Part shown: one piece after another, positions 1 to 39,600 of the stretch
How positions within the stretch are numbered: position 1 is the first letter of the stretch
Layout: each line of letters starts with the position of its first letter
Virus record (IMG/VR): IMGVR_UViG_3300020472_000017
Span: 248-64,247 of that record
Length of the DNA: 64,000 nt
Origin: a virus
Strand: one strand, 5' to 3'
Notes under the pieces: generated by a model
Database searches by the model: none
Told to the model about the DNA's origin: nothing
The model's input: only the letters and a program-made list of their open reading frames with translations
Position numbers and translations under genes: made by a program

Positions 1-3000
1 CACCAGAAGCAGTAGCAAAGTTTCTAATACAGAACCATGATTCATCATTATCATCCTGACCCATCTGCCAACCTGCGTCATTGTCAGTGTCAGTAAAGGT
101 CATGTATGAAGATGATCCATCTCCACCAAATGTTATTCTATGATATCCTGCACGACCATCTCTAAAGTCTGCAAATAGAGTTGCACCATCACCTTGGTTA
201 ACAATCTCAAGAGGTGATCCAGGATTGCTATCGCCAATACCTAAACGTCCATTACGGAAGTATACATTGTTGTATGATAAGTGAGTTCCATTCCAACCAA
301 AGTCATTACCATCAGTACCAAAGCGGATGTAACCAACAGAACCACTGTTTCTACCCTTGATGGCTAGAGAGTTAGTTGCTGCCTTACCTAGGTCAACACC
401 ATTAGCACCAGCAAGTTGTAAAACTCCAGTACCAGTGTTATTGAATACACCTTGGTCAGCAGTTAAATCGTTAACTGTAAGGTGTCCAGAAGCGTCTCTG
501 CGTGCGATTGTATTACCACTTGCTGCAGTAGACTGGGTGAAACCATCTAAGTAATGAGCGTCTAGCTGTGAGGAACTACCATCGTTACCTGCGTGCCACA
601 CGGTGTTACCATTAACGGTAATATCACCAGTGTTAATTCTTAAAGTACCATTTCCGTTGTTAGTGTTACCACCAGAAATGATCATCTGAACATCATAATC
701 AGGTGCTTGACCAGATGATCTAAAGTCTATCGTTGGAGTTGTAGAAGTAGCTGCCTTACCAATTTGTAATTTAGCACCTGCAGCAGCATCACGTAATCCA
801 ATAACAGTAGTAGAACCACCAGAGATTAGGTTAGATGATGTTACAGTCCACTTAGTTCCTGGGTTAGGACCTACGACATATATGTTTGCGTTGGTATTAT
901 TACCAACAAATGCGATCGTACCTGTGACTAAGGTGTAGATTTCACCCGATGTGTGAGTAAGTTCACTAACACCTGTAGAATCAACTACGATAGAACCAAT
1001 ATTATTTGTTGCACCTACATCAGAGTAGATAGTGTAAGTACCGCTTGGGTTAATGTTACCGTTAGTACCAGTTCTTGCATGATAATCAGGAATGTATAGT
1101 GTATACTTCAGACCACTATCGTTAAGATAGAAGTTCTCGAAGACCATCTTATCCTGACCAAGAACCTCAGGTAAGAATACATCACCCATAGGTTTGTTGA
1201 TGCCACCCTGAGAAGCACCGAAGTTATAACCAGACTGATACCATAGACCTTGATGTCCATCTAGTTGATCAGCATCTAATCCACTTGCAGCACCATCATT
1301 AGCACCCGACCAGACCTTATTCCAGTTACCATATACAGCATTACCACCAGAGTTACCTCTAATCCAAAGGTTGTCATTATCAGTCCAACCTAGTTGAATA
1401 GCAGCAGAACCTGTTGCTTCTCTCCTATAAGTTGTAATACCGTGGGTTGAACCACCATCATTAAGACCAGTAGCAGCATTATTTCTTAATGCAGCTGCAA
1501 CACCATTTGCTGCCTGAGCAGGTGATGGGTTGGAAGTTAGAGATGCAGTCTCGTTGAATATTCTGTTTGCAGTGTCTGCAGTACCAGATATAGAGATGTT
1601 GTAAGTAGTATTTGCAAGACGTGCAGGATCAATAGTACCAGCGGTTAAGTTACCAGCGTTCTGATAGAATGGACCATGGTTGCCGTCTAGCTTATCAGCA
1701 TTGAGTTCAGATCCTGGTCCTTGGTCAATAGCAACCTGACCATTAGCATCAATTAAGAAACCACCTTCTGATTGGTTACCAATTGCTTGGTTAGCAACAT
1801 CCTTACGGAAACGGAATACACCGTAGTTACCATAGACAGTAGCAGCAGGTGTTAAGTTATCACCCTTCCTAAGGTCAATTTCAATGTTACCATAAACACG
1901 GTTGATTGTACCTTTAGTAGCAGCTAAGATTGCTCCAGAACCACCACCAAATTCAGTTGGGATAGTTATAGAGAAGTCTGCAGTATATCCAGTACCAGAG
2001 TCAGTTACGGTAGCAGATGTAATAACACCACCAGATACAATGTAAGTTGCTCTTGCAACACCTGCATCAGTGATACTGACGTTACCACCTTCTAGTGGTA
2101 AGTTCTGATATGTACCATTAGTATATCCTGTACCACCATTTGTAATGGTAATAGTATCGATATAAGAACTATCAGTTACAGATCCACCAATAACTACACA
2201 ATCCTGAGTAGTTGGTCTAATTGCTTGTAGTGCATACTCCCATGATGAATCACCACGTAAGAACGTGTAAGAGTTAGATACACCTTTACTTGCTAATCTC
2301 TCTGGGTCAACTGTACCAGCAACGATGTTAGAAGCATCGATGTTAGTTGATGTTAACTGTGTCCAGTTAGCAATGTTACTACCAGAAGTATTAATTACCC
2401 TGTTGAGGTCAACAATTCTCTTTCTGGAAACGTTACCAGAAGTACTTGCTGATGAAGCAGAAGTTACTGTATATTCACCAGAGTTGACTAGAGTAATAGA
2501 GTAGAAGCCATCAGCACCTCCACCACTTGTGAAATCTAAGTATGCTAGAGCACCATTAGAAAGACCGTGACTGCTCTCAGAAACTGTGATAGTTGTACCA
2601 GTCTGAGAATACGTACCAGTTCCTAAGTTTGCAGCTGCACCATCAAGAATATAATCAGAAGCATCAAACTTGATGTTGTTAGCAATATTAATGTTAACTC
2701 TACCTTCAATCTGAGCAGCAACAACTGCGTTATTGTTTGTAGGTGAGTTAGGTGCGGTTACAGTTGGCTGTGTATAATATCCAGAACCAGCGTTAGTAAT
2801 AGTAACCTTAGTTACAACACCACTTGTTACGTTAGCAGTAGCAGCTGCCTGTACACCAGAACCTGAATCAGGTGCTCCAATTGTTAGAGCAAAGTCACCA
2901 GTATAGTCTCCACCACCATCAGTAATAACGAAGTTGTAAATTTGACCATCGTTATAAGATTGAATAGTACCACGAGCAGTCGTTGTACTACCAGCTACGA

Positions 3001-6000
3001 TAGCACCATTAGTGAATGAATAAGCTGAATTAGGCTGGAATGCTAAGAACTGAGATTCTAAGTCATTCTCCAAGATATAGGAAACAGCAACACCATCAGT
3101 CTCAAATGAATGAGTACCAGTACCTTGACCAGTTAAATCAATTGCTTGGTTGTTAGTTGCGTTAGACTTAGTAGTAGCAAGCTTAACATTGTTATCATCT
3201 ACCTTTATAACGAAGTACTTGGTGTTAGTTGAAAGGCCACCAATTGCAGTAGTGCCTTGTGTATATGTTAATCCATCACCATCATTTGAACCATGACCTG
3301 TAATAGTAATGGTCTCAGTACCTGTATTGACACTTGCAGGTGCTACGCTGAATGTTGTAGCAGTTGTTTGAATTGCAATGTCACCAGATTTTGCATCCTC
3401 AATAGCAAGTCTCTCTGCTTCAGATGTAACAGAGGTGATATTAAATGGACGTAAAGCAGGTATCTGATCAATGTTAATCTTACCTGAAGACGTTAACTGA
3501 ACCAGTGCAGATGGAACTGCGTTTGTTGAATATGGCTGGTTGAGGTATGGTCCTAGATTGTTTGAAATATAATCTTTAACTGATGCCTGAGTAGGTAGTA
3601 ATGCATCAGATGCGAATGTACCACCAAGAGTATCAGCGTCAGAGAAACCTGTAATCGTGATGTCACCACCAACGATCTTAATAGATGATAGTTCAGAGAT
3701 ACTAACAGTACCAACGAAACTAATGTTACCTGTTCTGTTGTAGATAGTAACGAAATTACCAACCTTGAAGTCACCAAATTCGTTAGTACCTGAGGTGTAA
3801 ACCTGACCGAAGGATTGTTCAGATGCTTCGTATGCAGTACCTAAACCAAATCCACCGTTCTGTGGTAGAGCAGCATAGGTGTTACCAGATCCAGCGTATT
3901 CCCAAGTATGAGCAGATGAGTTAACAACAGATGGTCTGTGGAATTTAATTGATTTACCTACAAGACCGCCTAGGTTACCATCAGCATATCTGTAACGAGT
4001 GTTAGGACTTGCATCTAGCGTGTAGTCCATCGACCTGTTGGTCGTGATCTTAGCAACAATCTGAGTTCCTGGAGAACCACTAACAACCTCAGTTTCAAGA
4101 ATGATGTGCTCAACAGCAGGATCAGTAGGTGATACATCACCAATTCTAATGATATAGTCTTCAGTAGGAATCTGTGTTAGAGCTGTACCACTAACCTGAA
4201 TGACCTGTCTTCCAGATTCAACTTGGTTACCATCAACATCATTAGTAATACTGTCAATGACACCAATGTCAAAGCTGTATGGGTCTGCTCTAAATCCACT
4301 TGCACGTAAAGCATATGTACCAAAGTTAGAAGCAGAGTTGGTTATGGATGCATATCCACCAGACTGGCAAACAACACCATCTTGACAGAAGATAGCGAAC
4401 ACAGAAACGACCTGTGTATATCCATCGTTAGTAATATTATATGCAGTACCACCAAAGGAAATGATAGTGAATGCGTTTGCAACCATCGACTTACCTTGTG
4501 GGTCGAATTGTGCAATGGTGTTACCTTGTCCGTCTAGCTTAAGACCAGGACGAGGTACGTTTGGTGTAGCGCACTTAGCACCGTCAATATCACAACCAGA
4601 ACCTCCAAGGAATGAAATAACAGAAGAGTTCTGAATGAATGGAGATGCCTCAATAACAGGCAAGTCTAAGAAGATATTGAGTAGTGGGAATGAGAACTTA
4701 GCAGCACCCTGTTCAGTAATAACTGGATCAGGATCTGTAACAGTACCGCTATATGCAGTGGCACTTGATAGAACATTGTCCAGAATACCCCAATTGGTAG
4801 TGAGTGCAGAGATTACGTTAGCACACTCAGGTGCACTTGAATCTACTGTAATAGATCCATTAGAAACAGGAGCAATCTTCGAGAAGAACCCTGGTTCAAG
4901 ACTATTTCTTATTGCTTTGATTGATAACTCTTTAGCATATGCAAAAATTGCACGAGTATAATCAACCTCTTGAGTAACATGAGATATTGCACCACTACTA
5001 ATGTATAGGTTAGCAGCTTCAACTATCTTGGAGTTACCAGTATAACGAAGGTCGAATTGGAATGCTTTAACGATGTGAAGAATGTCATCAATACACTGTT
5101 GATCTCCAGGTGAAATCGTTCTTGTTGCTGGAAGACTACCATAGCCACCTGCAGAGGTTCCTAGGGCAGTTGTAACAGTGGTAAAGAATGTTGTAACCGC
5201 AGATGCTACATCAGTACATGTAGGTGTAGTAGCTGCTGTATCTGTAGCATGTGTAAGACTATCTGTATTGATTGCTTGTTCTACAATTGAGAACAATGTA
5301 TCAATTGATGATTTAACTGATGTACATCCACCAGGTTCTACTGTAATTGTAAGATCCTTAGTCTGATCAATACCATGCCAACCCTTAACGTTGACTGTTT
5401 CGTTAGCAGCAACCTGTTGAGCAATTTCACTTGCCATCTCAAAGACAGCACGAGCTTGGAATTCTTCTCCATCTACATGAGGAGTTCCAACAAAGTATCC
5501 TGCATGATCGTATACAGCATCATTACCACCATTGGTTAAGTTGTATGCTACTGCTCTTAGAACGTCAGAAGCATCATCCTTACAATCTTGATTGTGATTA
5601 GGAATTGTAAATCCAGGATCAGCAATTGGGTCTGTTGATCTTGGATAGCTGCTAGTGCCACCACCACCATGAGTACAACTCAACTGTAGTGATTCTATTG
5701 CAATCTTAACTGTAGAAGTTGCATAACTAACAGAATCGGCAGCAGCAGATACAAATGTATGTGCTGTAGTATTAGTAGAAGGTATAGTAGTTAATACTAA
5801 TACATCAAAAGTATTTGCAGTTACATTGGCAATACTAATCCACTTATCGCTAATTGGGTCAGTTGATCTTGGGTAAGAATGGTTACCACCACCATGAGTA
5901 CATGTGAAGGTAAATGCATTATCTGCTAGCTTGACCCTATCACCAGGCTTAAATCCATGGTTATTAATAGTAACTGTAAGAATACCAGTATTCGGATCAT

Positions 6001-9000
6001 ACGCACCGTCAATCGGAGTGTGCGTAGTTGGAGCAGTGAGTTCATTGGATCCAACCGTTAATACAAGAGCACCTGTTGCGGGATCGTATGTTCCTGCAGA
6101 AGGTACGTAATTATTAATTGTAGAAGAAGTTGATCTCTTAACACCATTAGTTGTTGAAGATACCCATGTGTGTGCATAGTTACCACCAGTGATAACTGAG
6201 TTATTCAACGCAGACTGATAGGTATGTGTTGTAGTGTTAGAAGAAATACCAACATCAAGAGTTACTGTAGTTCCAGTTGTAGCTACAATAGGAATTGAAG
6301 TATTATATGACTTGTCACGTTTCTGCTGAATACCATTAGCAGTAGCAGATATGAATGTATGAGCATCAGTGTTGGTTGAAGGAAGTGCATCAAGAACTTG
6401 TAGATCAAATGTAGTTGAAGTTACGTTGAATACCTTCTGCCACTGATTATAGATTGGGTCTGTTGCTCTTGGATAAGACTTATTAACTTGACCACCACCG
6501 CCAAATCCACAACTAAATGTGATAGAATTCTCTGCAAACTTAACCCAGTCACCGTTTCTCATTCCATGAGCAGCGGTTGTGGTGATCTTCATAATACCCG
6601 TTGTTGGGTTATATGTTGTACCAGCACCAGCAGTATGTGAATCAACTACAGCTCTTGGATAAGCGTGTTCTGTAGATCCACCATCCTCATCACACTTGAA
6701 TGTAATAGCACCTGTTGTTAGTTTTACATGCTCTTTAACATGCTTCAGACTATTAGCAGTTGCAGATACAAATGTATGAGCGTCACTAACTGATAGTGCA
6801 ACACCACCAGTACAATCAAAGTCAAATGTATTTGCAGTTACGTTCCATATATTAACATACTTACCGTCAATTGGTTGACCTGCTTTTGGATAAGACTCAT
6901 TACCACCGCCACCATATCCACAGCTCATCTGGATAGTACCAGTAGCAATGTTAATCTTGTCTCCCTCTTGGAAACCGTGATCAGTGACAGTAACAGTCAT
7001 CACACCAGTGGTGACATTCAATGCAGCACCAGAGACCGTATGACTAGTAGGAGCCGAAAGATTGTGATTACCAATAGTAACTTCTACAAGACCCGTTGCA
7101 GGGGTGTATACAGCGTTTGTAGGAGTGAACGTAACAGGAGGAGTAGTACCTACGTTAATATCGAAAGAATTCTGTGTAACATTAGTAACACTCTTCCAAA
7201 CATTAAGAGCTGGATCAGTCGATCTTGGATATGTGTGCTTGGAGAAATTATCATCCATAGCACAAGTAAAGGTCAATGAATCCTGTGCGACCTGTACTTT
7301 CTCACCAGCGGTAAATCCGTGGTTAGGAATTGTAAGAGTTAAGACACCTGTAATTGGTTCATATGTAGCACCAGTTACAGTATGCTTCGTGAAACCTGTG
7401 TCATTATAAACGACTGCTCTTGTAACACAATTGCTAACTGAAGATACCCAAGTATGTGGAGTAACATCAGTATTTGCTTTACCAACATTAACTTTAATAT
7501 TATTTGCGTCTACTCTTCTAACACCCATCCACTTATTGTAGAATGGGTCGGTTGTACGAGGATAATCTTTCTGTGTGGCATTACTGTCTAGTCCACAAGT
7601 AAACTTCAATCCATCAGCTGCGATCTGAAGTCTGTCCCCATCTACAAATGGGTGACTTGCAATGGTAAGAACCATTTCACCTGTAATAGGATCATACTTA
7701 GCACCAGTTGGAGTAAACTGATATGCGGATACACCTTGGAATGTATGAGCAGTTGTGTTTGTTGGAGTAGTACCGTTTAAAGCATTGATAGTAATATCAT
7801 TGCCAGATACTGCTTCAACTGGTACATCAGTCAAGCTAGAGATGAAACGCTCAACTGCTTCTTCTGAAATAAACTTATTATTAGTATTAAGTAGATTTGC
7901 AGCATCCTGAGTTAAGTTAGGAACAGTTCCATACGTACCCCTATCTAAAGTAATAGTCTCATATTGCTGAGCTGCAGTACTATGAGGATGTCTTAGGATT
8001 GGCAGATTACGGATAACCTTTAATGCATAATCCTTTGCATAGTTAAATGCTTCTACATACCTATCTTGATTACTTGTAGTTACCTGAGTGATGAAGTAGT
8101 TACAAGCATCATATACTCTGTCATTACCACCCCATTTAAGGTTGTGATATAAGGACTTCTGAAGGAAGTCAGTAATATCATCAGTACAATTTGAAGTATT
8201 GCCAGGAACGTTATATCCACCATTAGCAGCAAGCATTCTCTTAACTGCTACCTCAGATATCAACTCAGCGTTGTGAGCGAGAAGATCTGCAGCATCAGCT
8301 TGCTTATTATTAGCTGGGAAACTATTTGGAGTTCTATATGGTTTCCTTATATCAGTGAATGTACCATCTGTTCCAGTGGTAGCATTACTAACAATATTTT
8401 CACCAATTTCTAATATAAAAGTTCTATGGTCAACAATATCACTAACAGCCCACTTACCATTGATACCAGCAGTTCCACTACCAGCAATCGTTACATTAGC
8501 AGCAACACCAACATTAACTGTAATTGATGAAGCAGCATCTACAGCGGTAATTGCAGTTGCTGTATTATATACTGGATCACTAGATCTTGGATATGTGTGA
8601 GATGTTTGATGATTATCTCTCGAACATGTAAAGCTTAATTTTCCTGCACCAATTGTTACAGTATCAGCAGTTGTGAAGGTATGAGCACCAATGGTCATTA
8701 CCAACTCACCTGTTACTGAATTGTATGTGGCTGCAGTTACATCCTTCTGAACACTACCAGCAGTTATTGTGATAGCATTGGATGAAGTACCACCATTATA
8801 GGTGTGAGTATGATTTCTAAATCCTCTGAAGAGGTTGTGTCCTGTATTAACTTTAACTGTAAGTTTGTTATAGTTAACAGTCCAACTATCAATTGGATGA
8901 GCAAATGTATCACCTAATGCATTAAATGTAGTAGACCCAATTGTTAAATTGCTTGCTCTAGTAGCAGAATTTTCATGATATGATTTGACATATCCATATG

Positions 9001-11854
9001 CTTCTTCTGCAATAAATTCTTGGTTAACTTTAATAGCTTCAGCACCATCTCTAAACCTAGCAGTTTGAGAGATCTTAGTAAATCCATAAGGAGAGTTCCT
9101 TAAAGATGCTAGAACATAGTTACTAGATGAGATAACCGCTTGGTTACCAGTTGGGTTGAGTGTTGCATCAAATACACCAACAGCTGCTCTTACAACAAAT
9201 TGTAAAGAGTAACCATCAGGACGTTCAATACGATGAGTGATATATTTACGACCATTAAGATCTTCAACGTTATCTAATACACTAACTGTAGATCCACTAG
9301 CAGTTGCAGTGTTAGTTGTTGATTGAATATTTGCTGCTTTAAGAACAAAGATAGCAGTTGTATTGGAACTATTATACTTCGCAGTACCCATGCCCAATTC
9401 AGTATTACCTGGAAGAGTTGGAGTTCCAGCACCTGTAGCAAAGGTATCAATCTGATAAATCTTACTTAATGCTTCTGAACCAGCTCCACTGAAGTTAAAC
9501 TTAAGTCCACATTCTCCAAGTGAAACCCAATTACCGAATAATGTACTAGTGAGTGCGTTATCACAACCAGTAATAGTAACTGTAACTTCACCACTTGCTA
9601 AAGCCCATGAGGTATTAGTAGATGCACCAAAGTTAATTGCACTACTTACGAAACCATATAACTGAACTTCCTGTCCAACTTCATAGTCATGGTAAGAAGT
9701 ACCAGATAAAGTAAATGTAGGTCCAAGATAAGTCTGCTGTGTAGCTAATGAAGTATCAATCGTATTGATTGATAGAACTCTACTCGCTATTTCAAATCTT
9801 TGATATCCAGAACCTGTATCGGTAAAGGTAAGAGTAACTGGATTATCATTACCCTGAGCATCTTTTTGTACAGCGTTGGCAGCAGATGTAGCAAGTCTTA
9901 TCCAATCAGTATTCTCTTTATAAACATAATAAGTAGTACCATCTACAAGACCAGAGATGCCACCCATCTTGCTGGCACGATATACTATACCATCACCAGT
10001 TGCATACTGGTGTGTGGGGATATTAATACGATTACCTTCTGGCATAATCTGGCCAGAGGTGAATAGATGAAGATTAGTATTTGTAGATACTGCAGTGATA
10101 TCTTTAATACCTGTAGTAGCTGTAATTGTTGTAGAATTAAGCCAGGTATCATAAAGTTCAATAGTGTTGGAATCAACAGCTCTTACGTAATAAAGCGTAT
10201 CATCAGCAAGACCTGCTAGTACAGCAGCTTCATCCTTTTGATAATAAACTTGATCACCAGTCTTTAATAAGTGACCAGTAATTGTAATCCTATTTGTAGT
10301 TAAGTTAACCTTAGTAGCATCAGCAGGGAAAGCTATAGTTTCTCTTTCTGAATTAATTGTATGCTGATAGATCTGATTAGAGATAGTCTCTAATTCAGGT
10401 CTTAATGATTCAGCGTCAGAAACGTCAAATCTGTTAGATGGATTATTCTGTAAGTCAGTAACAATATTTGCTGCTACAGCATCATAGAATATTTTTTCAG
10501 CGTCCTGGAATACATCATTAACACCTGATGTAATTAATATCTTAACACTACCAGTTGAATATGGAGATGCTTGTGGACCTGTGAAGGTAATCTCTTGAAT
10601 AGTACCTAGTGTACCAGAAGATCCACCTTGTACGAAGTAACCAACTACAAGAGTAGTATTGTTACCTGTATGGTTAGTGAAAGTAATATTGAAGAGGTTA
10701 TCACCACGGAATTTATCACCAGGAACAGCTGGGATCTGTCCTAATTCTGGTTCGTAGTAAAGTCTTTGCTTATCGTCAAATACGAATGCATACTTCCAAG
10801 TATGAATTACAGTACTCTGTGGGTCTGAAGAGTTCTGAAGTGCGTCTCTAAGTACACAACCAGCAACATATGTTTCGTTAGATGCCTTAAGAAGGTGACG
10901 GTCGGCGTTCATCGGTCTGATGATAACACGACGTAAGTTGTCACCAATTAGAGAACAGTTCCTTGGAACTGAAATTGGGTTATCTTCTAGATATTCACCA
11001 CCAGAAACAATCAGTGAAACGTATTCATCACTAGGATCTGGTTGAGCTTTCTGTAAACCGTAAGCAATTTGTGCTGCTTTCTTAATAGTTTTTACAGGTC
11101 TTGCAGCAGAACGACCATCATTTAGATCACTACCAATAGTCTGAGAGACATATACACGTCCACCAGTGTCATTTGTAGCAACTTTATAAACAAAATCTGT
11201 AGTTGCGATACGCCTTGACTGATCAGTCAGGGGTGGGGTATCAGCAGTTGGGTAAAATGTTTGACCGTATGTATTACTTGTTACGTCTGTATCTTCATAG
11301 TTAAACAGATTAGGCCCACGAAGATCCAACGCAGGGTTGATTATAGTCTGAATATCTAAGTTAACGACCTGTGCAGTGTCAGAAATGATAGAACGTGTCG
11401 TTCTGATTTGACCTTCTACATCAAGCTCGTACTGAGGATCGGTAGTATTAACACCAACACGAATATTATTTTGAGGATTTAAATTTAAAGTTAATGCATC
11501 TTTCTCATTAGCATCAACACCCACAGACATTTCTATGGATTGGTCACCTTGAATACTTAGAGATCTTACTCTCTTATATGCTAGAGTATTACCAGCAGTA
11601 ATTACACCTAAATTTGCACTTTGGAATGAAAGATTATCATCATCTACCTTGGTTACAGTATAAGTTCCATCAGTTTCACCACCAGAGGTAAAATCGACGT
11701 ACAACTTTTCACTACCAATAAATCCATGAGCAACAGAAAGGATATTAACTACACCTGCAACCGTTCTACTGTAAGTGGCATTTATCCAATTACCTGTAGG
11801 AGTACTTCCAGAAGCTTGTATTCTTTGCTGGTCTGAATTAATCTTAAGAGCCAT
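1..11854 (-). CDS. Giant virion structural / tail-fibre-like protein, >=3951 aa, 3' end outside window
   Basis: ATG at 11854 (MALKINSDQQRIQASG...). The same frame gives sensible protein at spot checks near 9000, 7800, 7000, 5600, 4200 and 2-130; not every codon was checked. Absent from the ORF track because no stop lies in the window. Contains a split pectin-lyase-like beta-helix, helical DAxxLIxxNxxFIxEEA repeats, 8 YP(R/K) modules and three (N/D)AxxLDG fibre motifs (~550, 1265, 1690). Confidence 0.85.
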   Translation of the reverse strand, partial: MALKINSDQQRIQASGSTPTGNWINATYSRTVAGVVNILSVAHGFIGSEKLYVDFTSGGETDGTYTVTKVDDDNLSFQSANLGVITAGNTLAYKRVRSLSIQGDQSIEMSVGVDANEKDALTLNLNPQNNIRVGVNTTDPQYELDVEGQIRTTRSIISDTAQVVNLDIQTIINPALDLRGPNLFNYEDTDVTSNTYGQTFYPTADTPPLTDQSRRIATTDFVYKVATNDTGGRVYVSQTIGSDLNDGRSAARPVKTIKKAAQIAYGLQKAQPDPSDEYVSLIVSGGEYLEDNPISVPRNCSLIGDNLRRVIIRPMNADRHLLKASNETYVAGCVLRDALQNSSDPQSTVIHTWKYAFVFDDKQRLYYEPELGQIPAVPGDKFRGDNLFNITFTNHTGNNTTLVVGYFVQGGSSGTLGTIQEITFTGPQASPYSTGSVKILITSGVNDVFQDAEKIFYDAVAANIVTDLQNNPSNRFDVSDAESLRPELETISNQIYQHTINSERETIAFPADATKVNLTTNRITITGHLLKTGDQVYYQKDEAAVLAGLADDTLYYVRAVDSNTIELYDTWLNSTTITATTGIKDITAVSTNTNLHLFTSGQIMPEGNRINIPTHQYATGDGIVYRASKMGGISGLVDGTTYYVYKENTDWIRLATSAANAVQKDAQGNDNPVTLTFTDTGSGYQRFEIASRVLSINTIDTSLATQQTYLGPTFTLSGTSYHDYEVGQEVQLYGFVSSAINFGASTNTSWALASGEVTVTITGCDNALTSTLFGNWVSLGECGLKFNFSGAGSEALSKIYQIDTFATGAGTPTLPGNTELGMGTAKYNSSNTTAIFVLKAANIQSTTNTATASGSTVSVLDNVEDLNGRKYITHRIERPDGYSLQFVVRAAVGVFDATLNPTGNQAVISSSNYVLASLRNSPYGFTKISQTARFRDGAEAIKVNQEFIAEEAYGYVKSYHENSATRASNLTIGSTTFNALGDTFAHPIDSWTVNYNKLTVKVNTGHNLFRGFRNHTHTYNGGTSSNAITITAGSVQKDVTAATYNSVTGELVMTIGAHTFTTADTVTIGAGKLSFTCSRDNHQTSHTYPRSSDPVYNTATAITAVDAASSITVNVGVAANVTIAGSGTAGINGKWAVSDIVDHRTFILEIGENIVSNATTGTDGTFTDIRKPYRTPNSFPANNKQADAADLLAHNAELISEVAVKRMLAANGGYNVPGNTSNCTDDITDFLQKSLYHNLKWGGNDRVYDACNYFITQVTTSNQDRYVEAFNYAKDYALKVIRNLPILRHPHSTAAQQYETITLDRGTYGTVPNLTQDAANLLNTNNKFISEEAVERFISSLTDVPVEAVSGNDITINALNGTTPTNTTAHTFQGVSAYQFTPTGAKYDPITGEMVLTIASHPFVDGDRLQIAADGLKFTCGLDSNATQKDYPRTTDPFYNKWMGVRRVDANNIKVNVGKANTDVTPHTWVSSVSNCVTRAVVYNDTGFTKHTVTGATYEPITGVLTLTIPNHGFTAGEKVQVAQDSLTFTCAMDDNFSKHTYPRSTDPALNVWKSVTNVTQNSFDINVGTTPPVTFTPTNAVYTPATGLVEVTIGNHNLSAPTSHTVSGAALNVTTGVMTVTVTDHGFQEGDKINIATGTIQMSCGYGGGGNESYPKAGQPIDGKYVNIWNVTANTFDFDCTGGVALSVSDAHTFVSATANSLKHVKEHVKLTTGAITFKCDEDGGSTEHAYPRAVVDSHTAGAGTTYNPTTGIMKITTTAAHGMRNGDWVKFAENSITFSCGFGGGGQVNKSYPRATDPIYNQWQKVFNVTSTTFDLQVLDALPSTNTDAHTFISATANGIQQKRDKSYNTSIPIVATTGTTVTLDVGISSNTTTHTYQSALNNSVITGGNYAHTWVSSTTNGVKRSTSSTINNYVPSAGTYDPATGALVLTVGSNELTAPTTHTPIDGAYDPNTGILTVTINNHGFKPGDRVKLADNAFTFTCTHGGGNHSYPRSTDPISDKWISIANVTANTFDVLVLTTIPSTNTTAHTFVSAAADSVSYATSTVKIAIESLQLSCTHGGGGTSSYPRSTDPIADPGFTIPNHNQDCKDDASDVLRAVAYNLTNGGNDAVYDHAGYFVGTPHVDGEEFQARAVFEMASEIAQQVAANETVNVKGWHGIDQTKDLTITVEPGGCTSVKSSIDTLFSIVEQAINTDSLTHATDTAATTPTCTDVASAVTTFFTTVTTALGTSAGGYGSLPATRTISPGDQQCIDDILHIVKAFQFDLRYTGNSKIVEAANLYISSGAISHVTQEVDYTRAIFAYAKELSIKAIRNSLEPGFFSKIAPVSNGSITVDSSAPECANVISALTTNWGILDNVLSSATAYSGTVTDPDPVITEQGAAKFSFPLLNIFLDLPVIEASPFIQNSSVISFLGGSGCDIDGAKCATPNVPRPGLKLDGQGNTIAQFDPQGKSMVANAFTIISFGGTAYNITNDGYTQVVSVFAIFCQDGVVCQSGGYASITNSASNFGTYALRASGFRADPYSFDIGVIDSITNDVDGNQVESGRQVIQVSGTALTQIPTEDYIIRIGDVSPTDPAVEHIILETEVVSGSPGTQIVAKITTNRSMDYTLDASPNTRYRYADGNLGGLVGKSIKFHRPSVVNSSAHTWEYAGSGNTYAALPQNGGFGLGTAYEASEQSFGQVYTSGTNEFGDFKVGNFVTIYNRTGNISFVGTVSISELSSIKIVGGDITITGFSDADTLGGTFASDALLPTQASVKDYISNNLGPYLNQPYSTNAVPSALVQLTSSGKINIDQIPALRPFNITSVTSEAERLAIEDAKSGDIAIQTTATTFSVAPASVNTGTETITITGHGSNDGDGLTYTQGTTAIGGLSTNTKYFVIKVDDNNVKLATTKSNATNNQAIDLTGQGTGTHSFETDGVAVSYILENDLESQFLAFQPNSAYSFTNGAIVAGSTTTARGTIQSYNDGQIYNFVITDGGGDYTGDFALTIGAPDSGSGVQAAATANVTSGVVTKVTITNAGSGYYTQPTVTAPNSPTNNNAVVAAQIEGRVNINIANNIKFDASDYILDGAAANLGTGTYSQTGTTITVSESSHGLSNGALAYLDFTSGGGADGFYSITLVNSGEYTVTSASSASTSGNVSRKRIVDLNRVINTSGSNIANWTQLTSTNIDASNIVAGTVDPERLASKGVSNSYTFLRGDSSWEYALQAIRPTTQDCVVIGGSVTDSSYIDTITITNGGTGYTNGTYQNLPLEGGNVSITDAGVARATYIVSGGVITSATVTDSGTGYTADFSITIPTEFGGGSGAILAATKGTINRVYGNIEIDLRKGDNLTPAATVYGNYGVFRFRKDVANQAIGNQSEGGFLIDANGQVAIDQGPGSELNADKLDGNHGPFYQNAGNLTAGTIDPARLANTTYNISISGTADTANRIFNETASLTSNPSPAQAANGVAAALRNNAATGLNDGGSTHGITTYRREATGSAAIQLGWTDNDNLWIRGNSGGNAVYGNWNKVWSGANDGAASGLDADQLDGHQGLWYQSGYNFGASQGGINKPMGDVFLPEVLGQDKMVFENFYLNDSGLKYTLYIPDYHARTGTNGNINPSGTYTIYSDVGATNNIGSIVVDSTGVSELTHTSGEIYTLVTGTIAFVGNNTNANIYVVGPNPGTKWTVTSSNLISGGSTTVIGLRDAAAGAKLQIGKAATSTTPTIDFRSSGQAPDYDVQMIISGGNTNNGNGTLRINTGDITVNGNTVWHAGNDGSSSQLDAHYLDGFTQSTAASGNTIARRDASGHLTVNDLTADQGVFNNTGTGVLQLAGANGVDLGKAATNSLAIKGRNSGSVGYIRFGTDGNDFGWNGTHLSYNNVYFRNGRLGIGDSNPGSPLEIVNQGDGATLFADFRDGRAGYHRITFGGDGSSSYMTFTDTDNDAGWQMGQDDNDESWFCIRNFATASG
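5621..7834 (-). repeat. Array of 7 YP(R/K) modules inside the giant fibre ORF (8th copy at ~8500-8810)
   Basis: Manual translation gives YPRTTDP, YPRSTDP, YPKAGQP, YPRAVVD, YPRATDP, YPRSTDP, YPRSTDP. Confidence 0.85.
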
Positions 11855-30638: not shown

Positions 30639-30646
30639 TATTTATA
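30639..30646 (-). promoter_or_regulatory. T4-type late promoter TATAAATA
   Basis: Exact match overlapping the gp7 stop codon, 20 nt before the gp8 ATG. Confidence 0.8.
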
Positions 30647-33600
30647 ATGATCTCAGACGAACTTCTGGCAGAAGCGAGACGTTTCCGCTAGTTGTGCGCG
30701 AGAATGGATATTGAACTGTGAATGTAGTTGTGTTGGTGACTGTTACCTTGTAAGTACCATCAAAACCATCACCAGTGGTGTGATCTAAGTAAAACTCCAT
30801 TCCAGTAACTAAATTGTGAGCACTTGCTGTAGTAACCGTACATGTTGTACCACTGGAAGTATATGTGCCAGTTAATATTGTATGAGCATGTGCGGTGGTT
30901 CCACCATACCCTCTACCGCCTGTTGCGACCGTAAGAGTATTTCCAGATGTGTTCTTAGCACCATATAGAATTCTTTCTACTGTCCACACACTGTTTGCAC
31001 TACTATAGAATGGGATAAGAACCTCACCTTCGTCAGGGAATCCATTCTTCTGTGAAACATCATACCAGACATTCGTTAAGTTTAAGGTAGTACCTACAGC
31101 TGTAACTGTTGTAGTCAAGTAAGCATTAGCAAGCATATTAGAATCAGAGATCAATCTGTTTCTTTGCTTCCTCTCAATATGTAGTGGATGAGTTGGGAGA
31201 ACAGTTGGGACAGTAGTGTAATTATTACCACCTTGTAGGTTAATAACACTAAGTACCTTACCACTTCCAGCTTCAATAGTTGTCTCAGCAAATGCACCTT
31301 CTCCACCCCCACCTTGGAAGAGTAGGATAGGTGGATTTTCATAATTAGATCCAGGACTGGTTATAGCAACCTGAGTAATCTTTCCATTAACTAATGTAGC
31401 ATTAAACTCAGCAGGAGTTGGTCTCAATCCAGTATATTCATAACTGTCAATAGAAGTAGAGCTGGAAACTGTCGCAATTAAACGATCTGTACCTTCACTA
31501 GCAACTTGAAGTCTATCACCAGGATCAATAGAGTTAAATGTCTTACTGACAAGAACGTCATCAGAAGATCCAGTAAAGATAAACGCAGTACATTGTGATC
31601 CTGCTCTTGGAGCTTCACTGAATTCAATAATAGATCCTCTTAAGTCATATGCAACTCCAGGTTCCTGGAATACACCATTTAAGAAGATGACCAAGTTATT
31701 TGATGCAATAACAGCAGCATTATCACTTTCCAGTGAAATTGGTTCATTATCTTGCTTCATAGTAAATGTTAACTTTGCATTATCAAAGTAAGGTGCAAGA
31801 TCATCAATTAATGACATCTTACCAAAGTAGAACCCATAGAAGTCCATACCAGGTATAGGTGCCTCATTAAAGGTTATTGTGCTACCAGTATATGTGTAAG
31901 AATCTGTACTACCCTTAACCTGTAAAGTGCTATTCAAGAATAGTAAGAAGTTATCAGATGCAGGTAGTGTCTGAGTAGAACCATCAACCTGAGCTGTGAA
32001 TGTTGTATCTGTACCATCAAAGTTTACTGTACCGACTTTAATCTGGAAGTCAGGAGCACCTGAAGCAGTTCTAGTAACACTATTAAGGTTTCCAGTTGAT
32101 CCAACATTACAAGTAATAGTTGTACCAGTTACAGCAGTAATCGGTATAGCAGTATTGTATACAGGGTCAGTTGTACGTGGATAGGTGTGTGAAGTAGCAT
32201 TACTATCCAAACTACAAGTAAATGATAGCTTATCAGCACCAATCGTAACGGTATCGGAGGTTGTAAAGGAATGAGCACCAATAGTCATTTCCAAGATACC
32301 AGTATCAGGACTATAAGTTGCAGCAGTTACATCCTTCTGGACACTACCAGCAGTTATTGTAATAGCATTAGATGAGGTTCCACCGTTATAAATGTGTGCT
32401 CCTGAACCAACTGCAGTAGTAACAATATTAAAGAGCGTTGTGATAGTAGATGCAACATCTTGACAATCATTAGTATCATAAACTGTATTTCCACTATCAT
32501 TAGTGATAGTTAGATCCCTAACTTGAGTGCCCTGAGTAAATGTATTAGTTGTAACTACAATGTTACGCATTACCTCACGACAAATATCTCTAGCATGATT
32601 AAAGACTTCAACAGTCTCACCTTCCTCTCCTTCTACATGAACAGTACCAACATAGTAGACAGCAGCATCGTAGGTAGCATCATTTCCACCAAATTCAACG
32701 TTATCTGCAACAGCATCTACAATAAGTTTTGTATCACGAATACATTTCGCATAACTTGGAACTGTGAATGATGGATTATTAACCTTCATTCTTCCATATG
32801 CAGTTGTTGCAATAAATCCAAGGTTGGTTCTAATTAAACTTCCAGCATCAGCAAGCTTATCGTAAGCATATACACCAGTAGATACAATTGCTCGTTCTAC
32901 TGCAGTTGCAGTTGCAGATACAAACGCATGTCTGTCACCTGCTTTAATAGCACCAGCATTAGAAGTAATGAATTTATGAGTATAGTTACCACCAGCAATA
33001 ACTGAATTAGCAAGTGCAGAATGGAACTTATGCTTGTATGTGCTAGTAGACTGAGCAGTATTCAGAACATCAACAAAGATAGAATCGCTTGTTGTAGAAG
33101 TAATCTCTAAAGAAGCATCATAAAATGGATCAACTTTCTTCTTAATGGGTAGGATAGTAATACTATCAGTAACTGCTCCAACAAATGTATGAACTGTTGT
33201 ATTAGTAGAAGGTGCCTTAGTTAATACCTGAATATCAAATGTATTGTAAGTAACGTTAGAAACAGGAATAGCATTACCGCTAATAGGATCCTTATGAACA
33301 ATACCATTAGCAGCTGCAGCAACTACCTTATGAGTTGTTACATTAGTAGAAGGAACTGTATCAAGAACCTTAACCTCAAAACTATTCAATCTCTTATTGA
33401 AGATCTTCAACCACTTACCACTTACAGGGTCAGTAGAGCGAGGATATGAGTGTTGTCCAGCACCTTGAGTACACTCAAGTGTTATAGCACTATCATTGAA
33501 CTTAATCCAATCACCATTACTCATACCGTGATTAGTAGTAGTCTCAATCTTAAGAATACCTGTCTCAGGATAATAATGTGAACCACCCCTCATTAGAGCA

Positions 33601-36600
33601 GCACTTGCTGTACCACCAGTCCATGTATGTGCATAAGCACCACCAGAAATAATAGCATTGGTTCCAACAGATCCAGGCTTCCATCTATGTAATGATTGAT
33701 CTGGAGATACACCAACATTTAATGTTATAGTTGTATCAGATACAGCAGTAATAGTTACTGCAGTGTCATATGCAGGGTCTGAAGAACGTGGATATGTGTG
33801 GTCAGTTCCATAATTGTCTTTAGCACACTGGAATGTTAGTGAATTTGCAGTGAATTTAACAGTTTCGCCCACAAAGAAGTCATGAGCACCAATTTCTAAC
33901 TCAAGTGAACCACCTGCAGGATCATAAGTACCATCTGTTGCAGTGTAATTAACAATAGGTGACTTACCAACAAATATAGTAGCTGTAGTTCCAGTTACTG
34001 CTGTAACTGCCATATCTTTACCGAAGTATGGATCAGTTGCTCTAGGATAAGACTTAGTAGCAGTATTTCCATCCATTGCACATGTAAACTTCAATGAATT
34101 AGGTGCAACTCTAGCTACAGAGGATGCACGACTAATACCAGTGGCAGTACATGATACAAATGTATGTGTATCATTAGTTGTTGCAGGGATCTTATCAAGA
34201 ACCTGAACATCAAATGTATCAGTTGTTGTATTGAATATTTGTATCCACTTACCACTTACAGGATCAGTTGCTCTAGGATAAGTATTTGTTCCAGAACTTA
34301 CTCCAACATTAACACTAAGAGTATCTGCAGTATTTGCAGTAATTGCTAAAGCTGTGTTATATGCAGGGTCTGTTGTACGTGGATAATAATGAGCAGTTTG
34401 ATGACTATCCTTAGTACAAGTAAATCCAATAGAATTAGCAGCAATCGTAATAGTATTGGAAGTTGTTAAGTTGTGAGCAGCAGATGTCGTTAAGTTTAAC
34501 GTTCCATTTACAGGATTGTAAGAAGCAGAAGTTATATTATGCTGAGTGGAAGTATTATCTGTAAATGCATTAGTAACAGTACCACTAACATATAGATGAG
34601 AACCAGCTCCACGATCACAAGTGAAGTTCAATGCATTGTCATCAATCTTAATCAAATCTCCATCATCCCATCCATGTCCAGCAACAGTAAGTGTCATAAC
34701 ACCTGTTGATGGAATATATGTACCAGCGGTTGCTTGATGAGTTGAAGGAGCAGTAAATGCATGAGATCCACAAGTCAATTCTGCAAGACCTGTAGCAGCA
34801 TCAAATGTACCAGTGGTTACATCATAAGAATTAGTAGGAATAGCAGCAGTAAATGTATCCTGAGAAGCTCTTGGATACTTATGAGTACCTAAACCTTGAG
34901 TACAACTGAATGAGAATGCCTCATCAGCAACTCTAATATGATCACCATTTACTAATCCATGACCTACTTGTACACATCCAGTAGTTGCATTCTGGAAGGT
35001 ATGTGTAACAGCATGACTAATAGCACCTTGTCCACCGTTAGCATTAACAGTAATTGTATTAGAAGTTACTGCTGTAATTGCAATATCAACGTTGTATAAG
35101 TAATCTGCACCATTACCAGTATTAGCACCTGTGGCACGAGGATATGTCTTAGTCTGTGTCTGACTATTGTACTCACAACTAAAGGATAATGAGTTTGCGT
35201 CTAATCTAATAGTATCCAGTGTGGTTAATGTATGAGTACCAATTTGTAGTACTAAGTCACCACTATTCCCATCATAAGTCGCAGATGAGACATTAAATCT
35301 TTCATTCTGTATAGTCATTACACCCGTAGTTGGGTCGTAATCTGCAAAATGAGGTGATAACTTACTGTTACTTACAAATGAATGAGGATCAGTGTTAGTG
35401 GAAGGTATATCATCAAGAACAGTGACATCAAAAGCATTAGTTTGGACATTAGAGATCTTTAACCATCTATCGTATGCATAATCAGTGGATCTTGGGTATT
35501 GCTTCTTAGCTGTATTACCATCAAGGTTACAAGTCATTGTTAGTGACTTCTCCTTAATCTTAATCCAGTCATTATTTACAAATCCATGAGCAGGAGATGT
35601 AATTGTCATTACACCATTGTTAGGATTGTAATCTACACCAGTAACTTCAAATCCTTCTGTAGATGTTCTAGGATAGCTTGTGACAGTTTGATGATTGTTC
35701 TTATCACAACTGAATGAAACAGCACCATCAGAAAGTTTAATACTTTGACCAGCAGATAGGTTATGAGCACCTATAACTAACTCCATAACACCCGTAGTTG
35801 GTTCGTATAAGGCGTTAGAAGGTGTATAAGTCTTAAGAGGTGTCTTACCAACGTTAACTGTAATACTATCGCTTGTAATAGCAGATACAGCAAGTGCAGA
35901 TTTATAAGCAGGATCAGATTTTCTAGGATAAGTATGCTGAGTAGCCCTCTTATCCATCTCACAAGTAAAGATTAATCCATTTTCATCAATGGTTATTGTA
36001 TCTTGTGCTACTGTGAGACAATCGGCATCAATAGATGAGAATGAGTGAGTGTAGTTACCACCACTTTGAACTGCGTTAGATGCAGTACCACCATTCCAAG
36101 TATGTGGGGTGATGTCAGTAGTCGCTCCCTGTCCACCATTTACATTGACCGTGATGGTGTCAGTAGTTGTTGCTGTAATAGCAATTGCAGTATCATAGGC
36201 ATAGTCTGCGCCTCCTGCGGCGGCTGATCCAGAAGCCCTAGGATATGTCTTATCAGTCGAATAATTGTCACCTTGATAGTTACACCTGAATGTTAATGAA
36301 TTAGCAGCGATCTTAATACTTTCGCCAGTAACTAATCCATGATCTTTAATAGTTAGTGCTAAATCACCTGTAGTTGGATTATATGTTGCATTTGTTACAT
36401 CATGGTTAACTACTAGAGATGCACCAATTTGAACATCAAATGTATTGGCCTGTACGTTGAATACCTCAACAAACTTACCACTGAAAGGATCAGTTGTTCT
36501 TGGATAAGACTTAACAGAAGTATTACCATCCATTAAGCAAGTAAGCTTAACAGCACCATCAGCAATCTTAACTCTATCTCCACTCTTAAGAGTATGACCA

Positions 36601-39600
36601 TTTAAAGTCAAAGTCATTACTCCAGTAGCAGGAACATATGCTGCACTAGTTGGAGAAAGGGTAGTTGGAGCTAATAATGGATGAGCTCCGATTGTTAATG
36701 ATAAATCACCAGTTGCTGCGTTATATGTTGAAGCAGTAGGTGTATATTCTTGTCTTATACCTGTACCAACGTTAACCTTGAAGGAATCTGTAGTTACAGA
36801 GTAAATTGTTAGGAAAGCTCCAGCAGCAGGGTCTGAAGAGCGAGGGTAAGTATGATTAGTAGCATTGTTGTCCTTAGAACAAGTAAATGTTAGTGAATTG
36901 TCAGTAAACTTGATTCTATCACCATTATCCATTCCATGAGCAGCAGCTGTTATCATCATCTCACCTGTTGCTGCGGTATAAACAACCGAAGTAGGTTGGA
37001 ACTGATAAGTACTTAATCCTTGGAAGGTATGAGTAGTAGTATTAGTTGCAGCAGTACCATTAAGTGCATTAACTGTAATAGTAGTACCAGTTACAGCATC
37101 AACAGGAATATCAGATAGATTTCCATGTGGATCTGTTGATCTTGGGTAAGTATGATTACCAGCAGCTTCAGTACAACTGAATATTAGGGCATTGTTAGCA
37201 ATTCTAATGTATGACCTAGCATGTTTAATTGCATCAGTTACAGCAGAAGAGAATGTATGAACTGTAGTATTAGTAGATGGAACAGTATCTAATACTTGTA
37301 CACTGAATGTATTAGCAGATACATCAAATATTGGGATCCACTTACTGCTAACAGGGTCAGTAGCACGAGGATATGCATGAGTACCACCACCTTGAGTACA
37401 AGTGAATACGATTGCACTATCGTCAAACTTAACCTTCTCACCATTCTGGAATCCATGATTAGCAATGGTAACAACCATTATGCCAGTCCAAGGATCGTAA
37501 GTAGCAGCAGTAGCAGTATGATCTGTAGGTGCCAACAGTGTATGTGACCCAATAGTCATCTCTAGTACACCTGTACTAGGTGCATATGCTGCTGCAGAAG
37601 GTGCGTAGTTGTTAGTTAGGGATGAACCTACCTCAGATAAACCCAAAACATCATCCTGGGTATATCCATTACCAGCCTGACTTAGTACAACATTAGTTAC
37701 CTTCTGTCCACTAACTGTAATATCAGCAGTAGCACCAGAACCAGAACCTAATCTATTCTTAAGGGGAACTCCTGTATATGTACCATCCGTATATCCATAT
37801 CCACCAGTTAATCCATTAGCTACATCAAAGGTCTTAATTTCATCTCCAATCTGATCTAACTGGAAACTACTTGTATATGATGCACGATCATAGTACATCA
37901 CAAGGATAGTGGTTCCAGAAAGTAAAGGACTATTAAAGGTTAGAATATCATTGGCAAAGGTATAATTTGCAGGATTTTGTACAATACCATTGGCAATAAC
38001 AAATAATTGATCCTTATCTGGAGTTTTGCCAAGCTTTGTGGTAAGTCCTGTACCATCACTACGCATTCTAAATTGGGTATTAGTGCCATCAACAGAGACT
38101 CTAAGTGTATGTCCAACTCCAGAACCAATAGCACTTATACCAATTGCAGGTCCACCAGGGATTTCTCTAACTTCAATAGTGTTTGCATCAACTACTTTAA
38201 CGTAATATCCACCAGCATTAGTTAATCCACCAATAGCAGTTCCAGTTCTTACTTGAGGATAGTTTCCTACATCTGGATTAGGTAATGTTGAAGGATTATC
38301 AATACCATCAGCAATAATCTTTGCAAGTGTTGTAATGGCACTTGTGACAGTTGCACAACCGTCTGAAGGTGCAGTAATACTTAAATCTTTTATAGGAGCT
38401 AACGTAGTATATGTACCAATAGGTAGGTTGTTGACTACAGCAAGGTTACATAAGTCTCTTGCCTTATTAAATGCAAATATAGTTTCAGTCTCTTCCCCAA
38501 CAACATGCTTAAGGTAATTTGATGGGTTAGTTCTAGTTACGGAAGCAAGGCTATTAGAAGAAAGAGCAGTAGTAATAATGTCAAAGAGAGTGTCCATTGC
38601 AGAAGAGACACTAGCACATGTAGCAGCAATGTAAGTAGGTGAAGTATTAGTGACTTGAGTAAGACCGTGATTTCCTTGAACAGTGATTGCCTCATTAATG
38701 ATTACCTTAGCAGCCAGTTCCTTACACTTATTGAAACACCATATCGCTTGTGTCTCTTCACCATCAACAGGAGCAGGATTAGAGTATACGCCATCAACAT
38801 AGAAGTTTCCAGCATCCCATGTCTCACTATTGCCACCATAACGCAAGTTATATGCAATAGCTTCCATTGCATCAACTAAGTCATCAATACAATTATCATT
38901 ATGACCTGGAATACCTGGATAACCACTTGGAACACCTACAGTAGGATCTAATAACATCAAATACACTGCTTCTTCAGCAATGAACTTCATGTTGTCCTTA
39001 ATTAGGTTAGCAGCATCAATATGAGCATTACTTAGTGAAACTACTCCACCAACATATGCATTAGTAGCATCTAATGTGAACCAGTTACCACCATACCTTA
39101 AGTCATTTGCCCAAGCAGCTAATACTAGTCTTATATCTCTAGCACATGTAGTTGAGTTGTATGTAAGACTTGGATATGAAGCATTTAGTGATCCAATTGT
39201 CTCTTCAATGATATAATCAATGTTTGAGATGATTAAATCTCTAGCATCTTGGAATCTATCTCCACCAGCGTTATAAACCATACGCTGATTGTCAACTAAT
39301 CCATGATTAGTTAATGTAATTTGATTATTAGCAGTACTTACTATACTTGAGGATGATCCATCAAATGTAATAGACTTATCACTAACATCATCTATCTTAT
39401 AAGAAATACAAGATAATATCTTCTGAATATCTAATAACTGTCTACCATAAACCTGAACCTCAGTTGGAACTGCAGCTGTATAATCTGCTTTACCTAAAGC
39501 AAAGTTCTGAATCTGAGAAAGTTTACCAGTTGCCTTTGCAGATGGCTTAGGAATTACGTAAGTAGTACCATTAAAGGTAGTTCCTAGACTATTAGTTCCA

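Follow-up and report, generated by a model that had tools for sequence, protein, structure and literature searches.

An array of predicted barrel modules in a cyanophage tail fibre reads as a circular permutation of a gp7 array

Results

The DNA analysed (the window) is a stretch of 64,000 nt from the virus record IMGVR_UViG_3300020472_000017, and all features described here lie on its minus strand. An ORF at 2..11854, which runs past the window end and encodes at least 3951 amino acids, was assigned as a tail fibre by its match to phrog_5342 ('tail fiber protein') and by synteny with the tail-fibre genes of MED4-213 and P-HM1. A Pfam search with the 3951-aa fibre found no family, and megablast of the region against the phage collection returned only a 39-nt match, with no close cultured genome on record in that collection. 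Residues 1341-2078 of the fibre (738 residues, nt 7834..5621) form an array of six barrels plus a split one. Its first part (unit 1 tail, aa 1341-1375, 7730..7834) is made up of the final three strands of an outer barrel that is split and homologous to gp7 unit 1; the second (unit 2, aa 1376-1485, 7400..7729) is a whole barrel, colinear with unit 2 of gp7 and including the closing TRAVV strand. Next comes a nested block with four more barrels, colinear with an upstream array of Eurybiavirus fibres and matching phrog_5342 (block F, aa 1486-1912, 6119..7399). The array ends with the first strands of the split barrel, finishing in YPRSTDPIA (unit 1 head, aa 1913-2078, 5621..6118), and with the complete barrel nested in them (aa 1941-2045, 5720-6034; residues 649-753 of the structural model). 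That modules lie within modules is indicated by the sequence grammar, by a discontinuous barrel in the model and by gain or loss of whole modules at nested sites.

On either side of the array are the two halves of helical repeat 2. The N-terminal half (aa 1300-1340, 7835..7957), which ends in NNKFISEEAVERFISS, is helical in both AF2 models and matches the uninterrupted repeat of relatives; the C-terminal half (aa 2079-2150, 5405..5620) opens with DPGFTIPNHNQDCKDD and continues through GGND, and was placed by alignment of the joined flanks and by helices in the model. A separate insertion site lies upstream in the same fibre (aa 1016-1125, 8480..8809), holding one cassette here and an array of 300-440 aa in Eurybiaviruses, and is empty in distant fibres. 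The gp7 gene was identified by phrog_2885 ('baseplate wedge subunit'). Its unit 1 (aa 3092-3301, 36993..37622) has the standard order of head, nested barrel and YPRSTDP-HGN-tail, and unit 2 follows (aa 3302-3380, 36756..36992). An initial annotation of the window had placed the fibre array exactly, at 5621-7834, but its gp7 positions were off by about 4-17 nt, unit 1 being nt 37622-36993.

In that annotation the fibre YPR array was described as the opening part of the gp7 array in circularly permuted form. When the array ends were rejoined, the last 166 residues and the first ~50 were colinear with gp7 unit 1 and the beginning of unit 2; fibre residues 1882-2078 joined to 1341-1392 aligned with gp7 3090-3310 at 128/220 positions (58% identity), with one 1-residue gap each side. 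The two longest and strongest diagonals of a protein dot plot ran in the permuted order (1904-2053 against gp7 3085-3234, 57% over 150 aa; 1336-1403 against gp7 3255-3322, 56%), and all remaining diagonals were of 84 aa or less and 54% or less. Piecewise BLAST paired three of the four fibre pieces specifically with gp7 unit 1: the unit 1 tail (70% identity and 69 bits to gp7 3260-3302; runner-up in either protein, 30 bits), the inner barrel (63%, 137 bits; runner-up 105 bits) and the first outer strands of the head (39 bits; runner-up 33 bits). The last outer piece (2041-2078) was ambiguous, with no specific pairing to that unit. In a module phylogeny the fibre copies formed one clade, split from the gp7 copies with 100% support. 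In the gp7 of P-HM1 and MED4-213 the best matches of the two fibre ends directly adjoin (record positions 55888-56484 and 56488-56778), and the head and tail of unit 1 were contiguous in every gp7 examined. Both array breakpoints fall in one loop, just after YPRxxDP, of one module type; the loop after YPRxxD carries whole nested barrels in P-SSM4 gp7 unit 1 and in fibre unit 4. As judged from these alignments, the fibre array is a true circular permutation of the gp7 version, as had been claimed.

The equation of the whole array with the start of the gp7 array held for its ends (unit 1 tail and unit 2 to ~residue 1485, unit 1 head from ~1913) but not for its interior. Residues 1486-1912 were colinear with an array at the upstream site of the MED4-213, P-HM1 and P-HM2 fibres, and aligned with that of MED4-213 (1013-1460) at 280 bits and 46% identity, against 206 bits or less for any gp7 alignment, and PHROG matches divided the array likewise into gp7-like ends and a fibre-like interior. 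In the window's own gp7, the last part of the array is likewise colinear with the latter half of block F, and Eurybiavirus gp7 arrays consist of unit 1 and unit 2 only. Given this composite make-up, more than one event may be involved. The sequence GFTKHTVTGATY, which opens block F, was considered as a flank carried over from the upstream site and rejected; the pattern HT.T..(A)TY.P.TG opens most barrels.

It had also been proposed that the array was spliced into a helical domain, and a comparison with orthologous fibres bore this out. The joined flanks aligned with the fibres of MED4-213 and P-HM1 at 50% identity over 190 aa with no gap at the junction (EAVERFISS followed by DPGFTIPNHNQDCKDD in the window, EAVQRYEFD followed by DPGHRIPGANQNCVDD in the relatives), and the P-HM2 fibre has the identical empty site and an uninterrupted helical repeat. 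No interruption was seen in any paralogous helical repeat, whether in the fibre or in gp7, or in the repeats of less closely related fibres (S-WAM2, L110-L114). The 738-residue array is a derived insertion in the loop between two helices of helical repeat 2, at which no host residues were lost. DP dipeptides at the junction had been taken as a further clue. They are present in the window, but the left junction (FISS/LTDVP) has no DP and no other shared motif and the right has two, of which the one in the right flank is part of the target loop itself (DPGH in P-HM1) and differs from one relative to another (IANPRF, IAAARF, IASARF, LLSPGF); a single crossover at DP is thus unsupported.

A filled site with identical junctions was found in ~45 uncultured phage contigs (21 from IMG/VR and 25 from metagenomes) at 65-99% identity, which argues for one old event. 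The permuted arrangement is fixed in this widespread uncultured cyanomyovirus lineage, where variation is limited to whole modules gained or lost and array lengths are about 620, 738 and 956 aa. The unit 1 tail is the most conserved piece of the array, with 26 invariant columns among 18 relatives. The branch between fibre and gp7 copies measured 0.44 substitutions per site in a tree that is unrooted and names no donor, and in which the fibre-gp7 distance equals that between the two gp7 lineages. At the DNA level the best similarity of the fibre array to gp7 was 70% over 352 nt, with no sign of recent transfer or, at the array junctions, of recent exchange; the event being old, a DNA-level trace of its mechanism is no longer readable. 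No duplicated, partly trimmed or shorter intermediate was seen among 21 + 27 IMG/VR and 29 metagenome loci, which is weak evidence as these sample a single lineage.

Two AF2 models were compared, one of 857 aa that includes both array ends and a 163-aa construct without the far end. The unit 1 tail strands reached pLDDT 72-81 in the former; without the far end they fell to 48-54 and two strands were lost, and the neighbouring complete barrel (unit 2) rose to 83-94. This suggests that the first half-barrel needs its distant partner, and from the models we infer that the two half-barrels may reassemble into one barrel. AF2 closed another barrel across a 400-residue excursion in block F (model range 197..620). 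A barrel spanning model residues 49..786 was absent among the best 50 structural matches, and the helical flanks had pLDDT below 50 in the 857-aa model. With unit 2 as a single module, VIA gave Z 8.7 to 4p22_B and 7.8 to 4hiz_A. Foldseek returned only meaningless low-TM rows for the whole 857-aa model and no match at E 0.001 or below for the 163-aa model, and gp7 unit 1 and unit 2, searched by sequence against the PDB, had no match at E up to 1.

Discussion

The best explanation for the data, to which we give a probability of about 0.6, combines insertion of an out-of-phase array, barrel closure and permutation by duplication. The array most likely arose as an out-of-phase excerpt of a gp7-type array that was tandem or duplicated; both breakpoints would then lie in the equivalent loop of two successive copies of unit 1. 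Reassembly of the half-barrels would close the array into a ring of domains and so place the chain ends side by side, as is required of an insert in a helix-loop-helix, and selection would keep only those excerpts able to close. The interior block may already have been in the donor array, or may have entered afterwards at the linker that connects unit 2 with unit 1. As a putative function, the array would probably serve the fibre as an exposed branch for decoration or adhesion.

A less probable but still credible course is assembly in two steps, in which a permuted insert of ~320 aa (unit 1 tail, unit 2, unit 1 head) came first. Block F, until then the fibre's own upstream array, would have moved later to the linker that joins unit 2 to the unit 1 head, with a single cassette staying behind at the upstream site. 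The closeness of the interior to the upstream fibre array of MED4-213 and the identical division of the array by PHROG profiles would fit such a course, as would the state of the upstream site (one cassette here, an array in Eurybiaviruses, empty in distant fibres) and the Eurybiavirus gp7 arrays made up of two units. However, no relative with just the short insert was found, the shortest array being ~620 aa, and the end of the window's gp7 array is colinear with the second half of block F, so that a gp7-type donor that already held such a block is equally possible.

The initial annotation had favoured integration of a circle by a single crossover, or else tandem duplication with trimming. The permuted order fits this proposal, but the two routes give one and the same final sequence. 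We consider it unlikely that a circular DNA carrying the array, excised by recombination between the array ends, integrated by one crossover in the loop after YPRSTDP. T4-like phages recombine intensely, a single such event would yield exactly the order seen, and between YPR motif codons there are short stretches of exact identity (5-9 nt, occasionally 11-22 nt) at which a crossover could occur. Crossover at a short homology should, however, leave one copy of it at each junction, where the array has no DP on the left and two on the right (a weak test after such divergence), and the right DP is that of the variable target loop. The event is in any case too old for a direct trace of a circle.

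It is improbable that the filled state is ancestral and that Eurybiaviruses lost the array by precise deletion. Modules are gained and lost cleanly and whole in this family, and the unrooted tree, with its equal fibre-gp7 and gp7-gp7 distances, would allow it; but such a deletion would have had to leave the helix-loop-helix continuous again and complete to the last residue, and all the paralogous repeats and those of distant fibres are uninterrupted. Least likely of all is that the arrangement has no structural meaning, being an ordinary tandem array cut arbitrarily with its two partial modules as unfolded linkers: tandem repeats always permit out-of-phase excerpts and no closure-spanning barrel was among the best 50 structural matches, but both breakpoints lie in one loop of one module type, the partial modules rank with the best-conserved parts across the 65-99% relatives, and AF2 gave their strands pLDDT 72-81 only with both pieces present.

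The fibre array is a clean natural case of a circularly permuted multi-domain insert, and the empty site in cultured relatives together with dozens of diverged filled copies offers rare material on the origin and folding of such architectures. It also makes a structural prediction, in which the split barrel would be the clasp that holds a ring of domains on a helical stalk. The sites taken up by large barrel arrays differ between orthologous fibre genes, and such arrays are common to baseplate and fibre proteins; their placement and sharing bear on how marine cyanophages diversify host-contact structures. A more speculative extension, which we think doubtful, is that the barrel arrays of cyanomyovirus virion genes form a pool, and that any surface loop can accept one because the split barrel acts as the clasp. 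If so, an array cut in the permissive loop that follows YPRxxDP would re-close as a ring, and blocks of hundreds of residues could move between gp7 and the fibre and also between sites in one fibre gene, possibly with the conserved YPR-DP codons as recombination linkers; this would amount to a general way of re-decorating host-recognition structures.

Literature searches found no paper on cyanophages and sandwich-barrels, nor on circular permutation, tail fibres and domain insertion together. The closest known case found was swaposin, the plant-specific insert of plant aspartic proteases, which likewise sits inside another protein. There too, the N-terminal part of the insert corresponds to the C-terminal part of the standard unit, and its C-terminal part to the N-terminal one, which fits an out-of-phase tandem excerpt, and a 'permutation by duplication' model has been proposed (PMC3320104). 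Unlike swaposin, the fibre array is of 738 aa with six barrels and a split one, its split unit is a beta-barrel with a nested barrel, it interrupts a helical repeat in a phage tail fibre, and orthologues with the empty site still exist. A second parallel is the Si3 insertion of the cyanobacterial RNA polymerase beta' subunit, a long multi-barrel insert in an inter-helix loop with eight sandwich-barrel hybrid motifs, nested in one another and several of them discontinuous, being assembled from far-apart stretches of chain (PMC10895346); the passages of that paper drawn on here do not speak of the outermost unit as circularly permuted. The Si3 motifs gave no sequence match and no top-ranked structural match to the fibre or gp7 modules. 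No RNA polymerase chain was among the best 50 VIA or Foldseek matches of the single module, the top ones being other small barrels with Z of 8.7 or below.

The distal tail-fibre genes of T-even phages show motif-mediated mosaicism via 'His boxes'. Like these, the YPR motifs are short conserved motifs of fibre genes that could be recombination linkers, shuffling domains between virion genes, but their codons share mostly 5-9 nt of exact match and no recent exchange is visible at the array junctions. The best matches of the single module were small closed barrels, the inserted beta-barrel domain of the phi92 endosialidase (PDB 4hiz) and the first catalytic cysteine half-domain of Uba1 (4p22), both presumably inserted domains in their own proteins. 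With 78-79 residues aligned at an rmsd of 2.1-2.4 Å, ~14% identity and Z of 7.8-8.7, a range that the tool's note calls common, the resemblance is one of fold only.

Results

The window comes from a T4-like cyanomyovirus. Among cultured phages it is closest to the Eurybiaviruses MED4-213, P-HM1 and P-HM2, in which gp7, a 177-aa protein and the giant fibre follow one another in the same order. The tail-fibre ORF (nt 2..11854, minus strand; 3951+ aa) corresponds to phrog_5342 'tail fiber protein', and a 5417-aa ORF (nt 30642..46895), annotated as gp7 in relatives, to phrog_2885 'baseplate wedge subunit'. A Pfam scan of the 3951-aa fibre returned zero families at E ≤ 0.01. The fibre has two to three copies of a helical repeat (..FI.EEAV...C.DD...YNL..GGND..YD), and gp7 has three or more.

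The initial annotation had placed an array of YPR modules (fibre residues 1341-2078; nt 7834..5621 exactly, minus strand) inside a helical domain of the fibre, and the empty, uninterrupted site was indeed seen in the MED4-213, P-HM1 and P-HM2 fibres, where the repeat reads unbroken as FIANEAVQRYEFD(N/D)PGHRIPGANQNCVDDALD. When joined, the window flanks aligned to these fibres with 50% identity over 190 aa and without a gap at the junction, so that the host repeat lost no residue. In AF2 models one helix ends at ...ERFISS, and across the junction a short coil leads into the helix CKDDASDVLRAVAYNL. Paralogous helical repeats, both of the fibre and of gp7, are likewise unbroken, as are those of the more distant fibres of S-WAM2 and five IMG/VR contigs (L110-L114); the array is therefore the derived state.

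Cutting both proteins at YPR defined a repeated module of ~90-100 aa: HT.T..(A)TY.P.TG stands at its start, F(T/S)C followed by YPRxxDP at its centre and ...VNVG...HTF at its end; further copies are nested within some module copies of both the fibre and gp7. The first unit of the gp7 array (unit 1; aa 3092-3301, nt 36993-37622, minus strand) consists of a head, a nested barrel, ...YPRSTDP-HGN- and a tail, LSDIPVDAV...NALNG...HTFQG. The fibre array opens with the tail, LTDVPVEAV...NALNG...HTFQG, and closes with NNYVPS..., a nested barrel and ...YPRSTDPIA. The proposed circular permutation relative to unit 1 held up: the rejoined ends aligned colinearly to gp7 3090-3310 with 58% identity and a single one-residue gap per side, and in a windowed dot plot of fibre against gp7 no diagonals were longer or stronger than their two, the remaining ones reflecting generic module likeness (35-54% over ≤84 aa). 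In piecewise BLAST against both proteins, the fibre tail paired with gp7 unit 1 (70% identity, 69 bits; runner-up 30), as did the nested barrel of the head (137 versus 105 bits) and its first outer strands (39 versus 33 bits); pairing of the last outer piece of the head was ambiguous. In P-HM1 and MED4-213, the top database matches of the two fibre ends directly adjoin within gp7. The tail motif stands directly behind YPR..DP in each gp7 copy inspected (in P-SSM4, behind a barrel nested there) and directly behind the helix in each fibre copy inspected.

The interior of the array has a different affinity, and the suggestion that the whole array is a permuted start of the gp7 array therefore stands for the gp7-like ends but not for residues 1486-1912, which are nearer to an upstream array of the MED4-213 fibre. 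Eurybiavirus gp7 arrays contain units 1 and 2 only (about 270 aa), unit 2 ending ...HTF...ITRAVV just ahead of a helical domain, and fibre residues 1341-1485 are colinear with this arrangement as far as TRAVVY. The window gp7 array (nt 32890-37622) is about 1600 aa, a large lineage-specific expansion relative to those of Eurybiaviruses. The fibre interior, here termed block F (residues 1486-1912, nt 6119-7399), aligned end to end with MED4-213 fibre residues 1013-1460 (280 bits, 46% identity), versus ≤206 bits for any alignment with the window gp7, and PHROG profiles divided the array in like manner. The Eurybiavirus counterpart occupies a different, upstream fibre site, so one block is found at two sites of orthologous genes. 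In the window that upstream site holds one NGGTSS...VNVG cassette (nt 8480-8809); it is empty in the distant IMG/VR fibres, and in MED4-213, P-HM1 and P-HM2 it carries a 300-440 aa array with the cassette nested just before YPR. The whole fibre array runs from the unit 1 tail through unit 2 and block F to the unit 1 head, which is the order of a gp7-type array (unit 1, unit 2, ... end block) circularly permuted. The second half of block F is also colinear in the dot plot with the end of the window gp7 array.

In AF2 models, a single module (unit 2) formed a small closed barrel (pLDDT 83-94). Its best structural match was the Uba1 FCCH domain (4p22_B; Z 8.7, rmsd 2.3 Å, 78 residues aligned), followed by the barrel inserted in the endosialidase of phi92 (4hiz_A; Z 7.8, rmsd 2.1 Å, 79 aligned) and then by barrels of the ferredoxin-reductase type and a number of phage tail proteins, although by the search tool's own caution such Z values may reflect merely a common arrangement. 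A PDB sequence search found no relative. An 857-aa model (mean pLDDT 69.7) contained five compact barrels, one of which spans model residues 197..620; AF2 therefore closes barrels over long nested excursions. In this model the unit 1 tail strands had pLDDT 72-81, level with neighbouring unit 2. In a shorter construct that stops at residue 1492 and used the same 18-sequence alignment, the tail fell to 48-54, with two of its four strands gone, and unit 2 rose to 83-94. This drop indicates that the tail would require a partner beyond residue 1492, the simplest candidate being the unit 1 head, and we infer that the two half-barrels may close into one barrel; none of the best 50 structural matches listed spanned both array ends. 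Structural matches did include one barrel made of residues from both ends of block F (model 197..620). The 'cap' GGNYAHTWVSS...VKR thus seems to provide the closing strands for the module starting at 1486, with unit 4 nested between; if so, there is an additional nesting site behind VNVG.

Discussion

The array was cut in the loop behind YPRxxDP. The P-SSM4 gp7 homologue of unit 1 (printed aa ~340-660) carries a complete barrel in that loop, YPRSEQD[barrel]DPAVAEAIPIDAV..., and fibre unit 4 has one in the equivalent loop, YPRAVVD[barrel]RDKSYNTSIPIV...; the loop thus recurs as a permissive point for chain excursions.

Two routes to the observed array were considered, and both predict identical end sequence. 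We modestly favour an out-of-phase excerpt from a duplicated array, as gp7-type arrays hold several unit 1-like nested units in tandem and swaposin provides an established precedent for such an origin (PMC3320104). The other route is integration of a circle via one crossover, for which a DP on both sides had been taken as a clue. A DP crossover should leave one DP per junction; however, there is no DP at the left junction and there are two at the right. The second of these is part of the target loop (DPGH in P-HM1) and is replaced by NP, AA, SA, TE or SP in relatives. This clue is therefore of no help. Exact matches between YPR motif codons are mostly 5-9 nt, which would suffice for microhomology only.

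None of circular permutation, domain insertion or nested barrels is new by itself; cyanobacterial Si3, for example, is described with eight sandwich-barrel motifs, of which four are discontinuous (PMC10895346). What is new is that these features come together: in a phage tail fibre, an array of several barrels has its outermost barrel split so that the array can be seated in a helical loop, sites with and without the array both exist today, and the interior block lies at another site in related fibres. Our literature search found no paper on this combination.

Both junctions recur in 21 contigs from IMG/VR and 25 from metagenomes (65-99% identity, measured to the left-junction region). A tree was built from unit 1, rejoined, together with the beginning of unit 2 (18 fibre and seven gp7 copies). 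In it a branch of 0.44 substitutions per site, with full support, divides the fibre copies from the gp7 copies and is similar in size to the split that divides the two gp7 lineages. At the DNA level the fibre head is only 70% identical to gp7 over 352 nt. The shared junctions, this branch and the low DNA identity point to a single old insertion, the DNA-level scar of which would be gone. Array lengths among relatives fall into classes of about 620-640, 726-739 and 956 aa that differ by whole modules. Among ten relatives compared (L005, L020, L021, L023, L127, L128, L131, L134, L135 and L137), some lack 105 aa at fibre 1605-1709, a clean loss of the nested barrel as a whole module, and others have 218 aa (two modules) extra near 1746-1755, a clean whole-module gain. 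In DNA sequence the two genes match best in a cassette shared by the fibre (nt 8508-8806) and the gp7 C-terminus (nt 32101-32396), with 73% identity over 299 nt.
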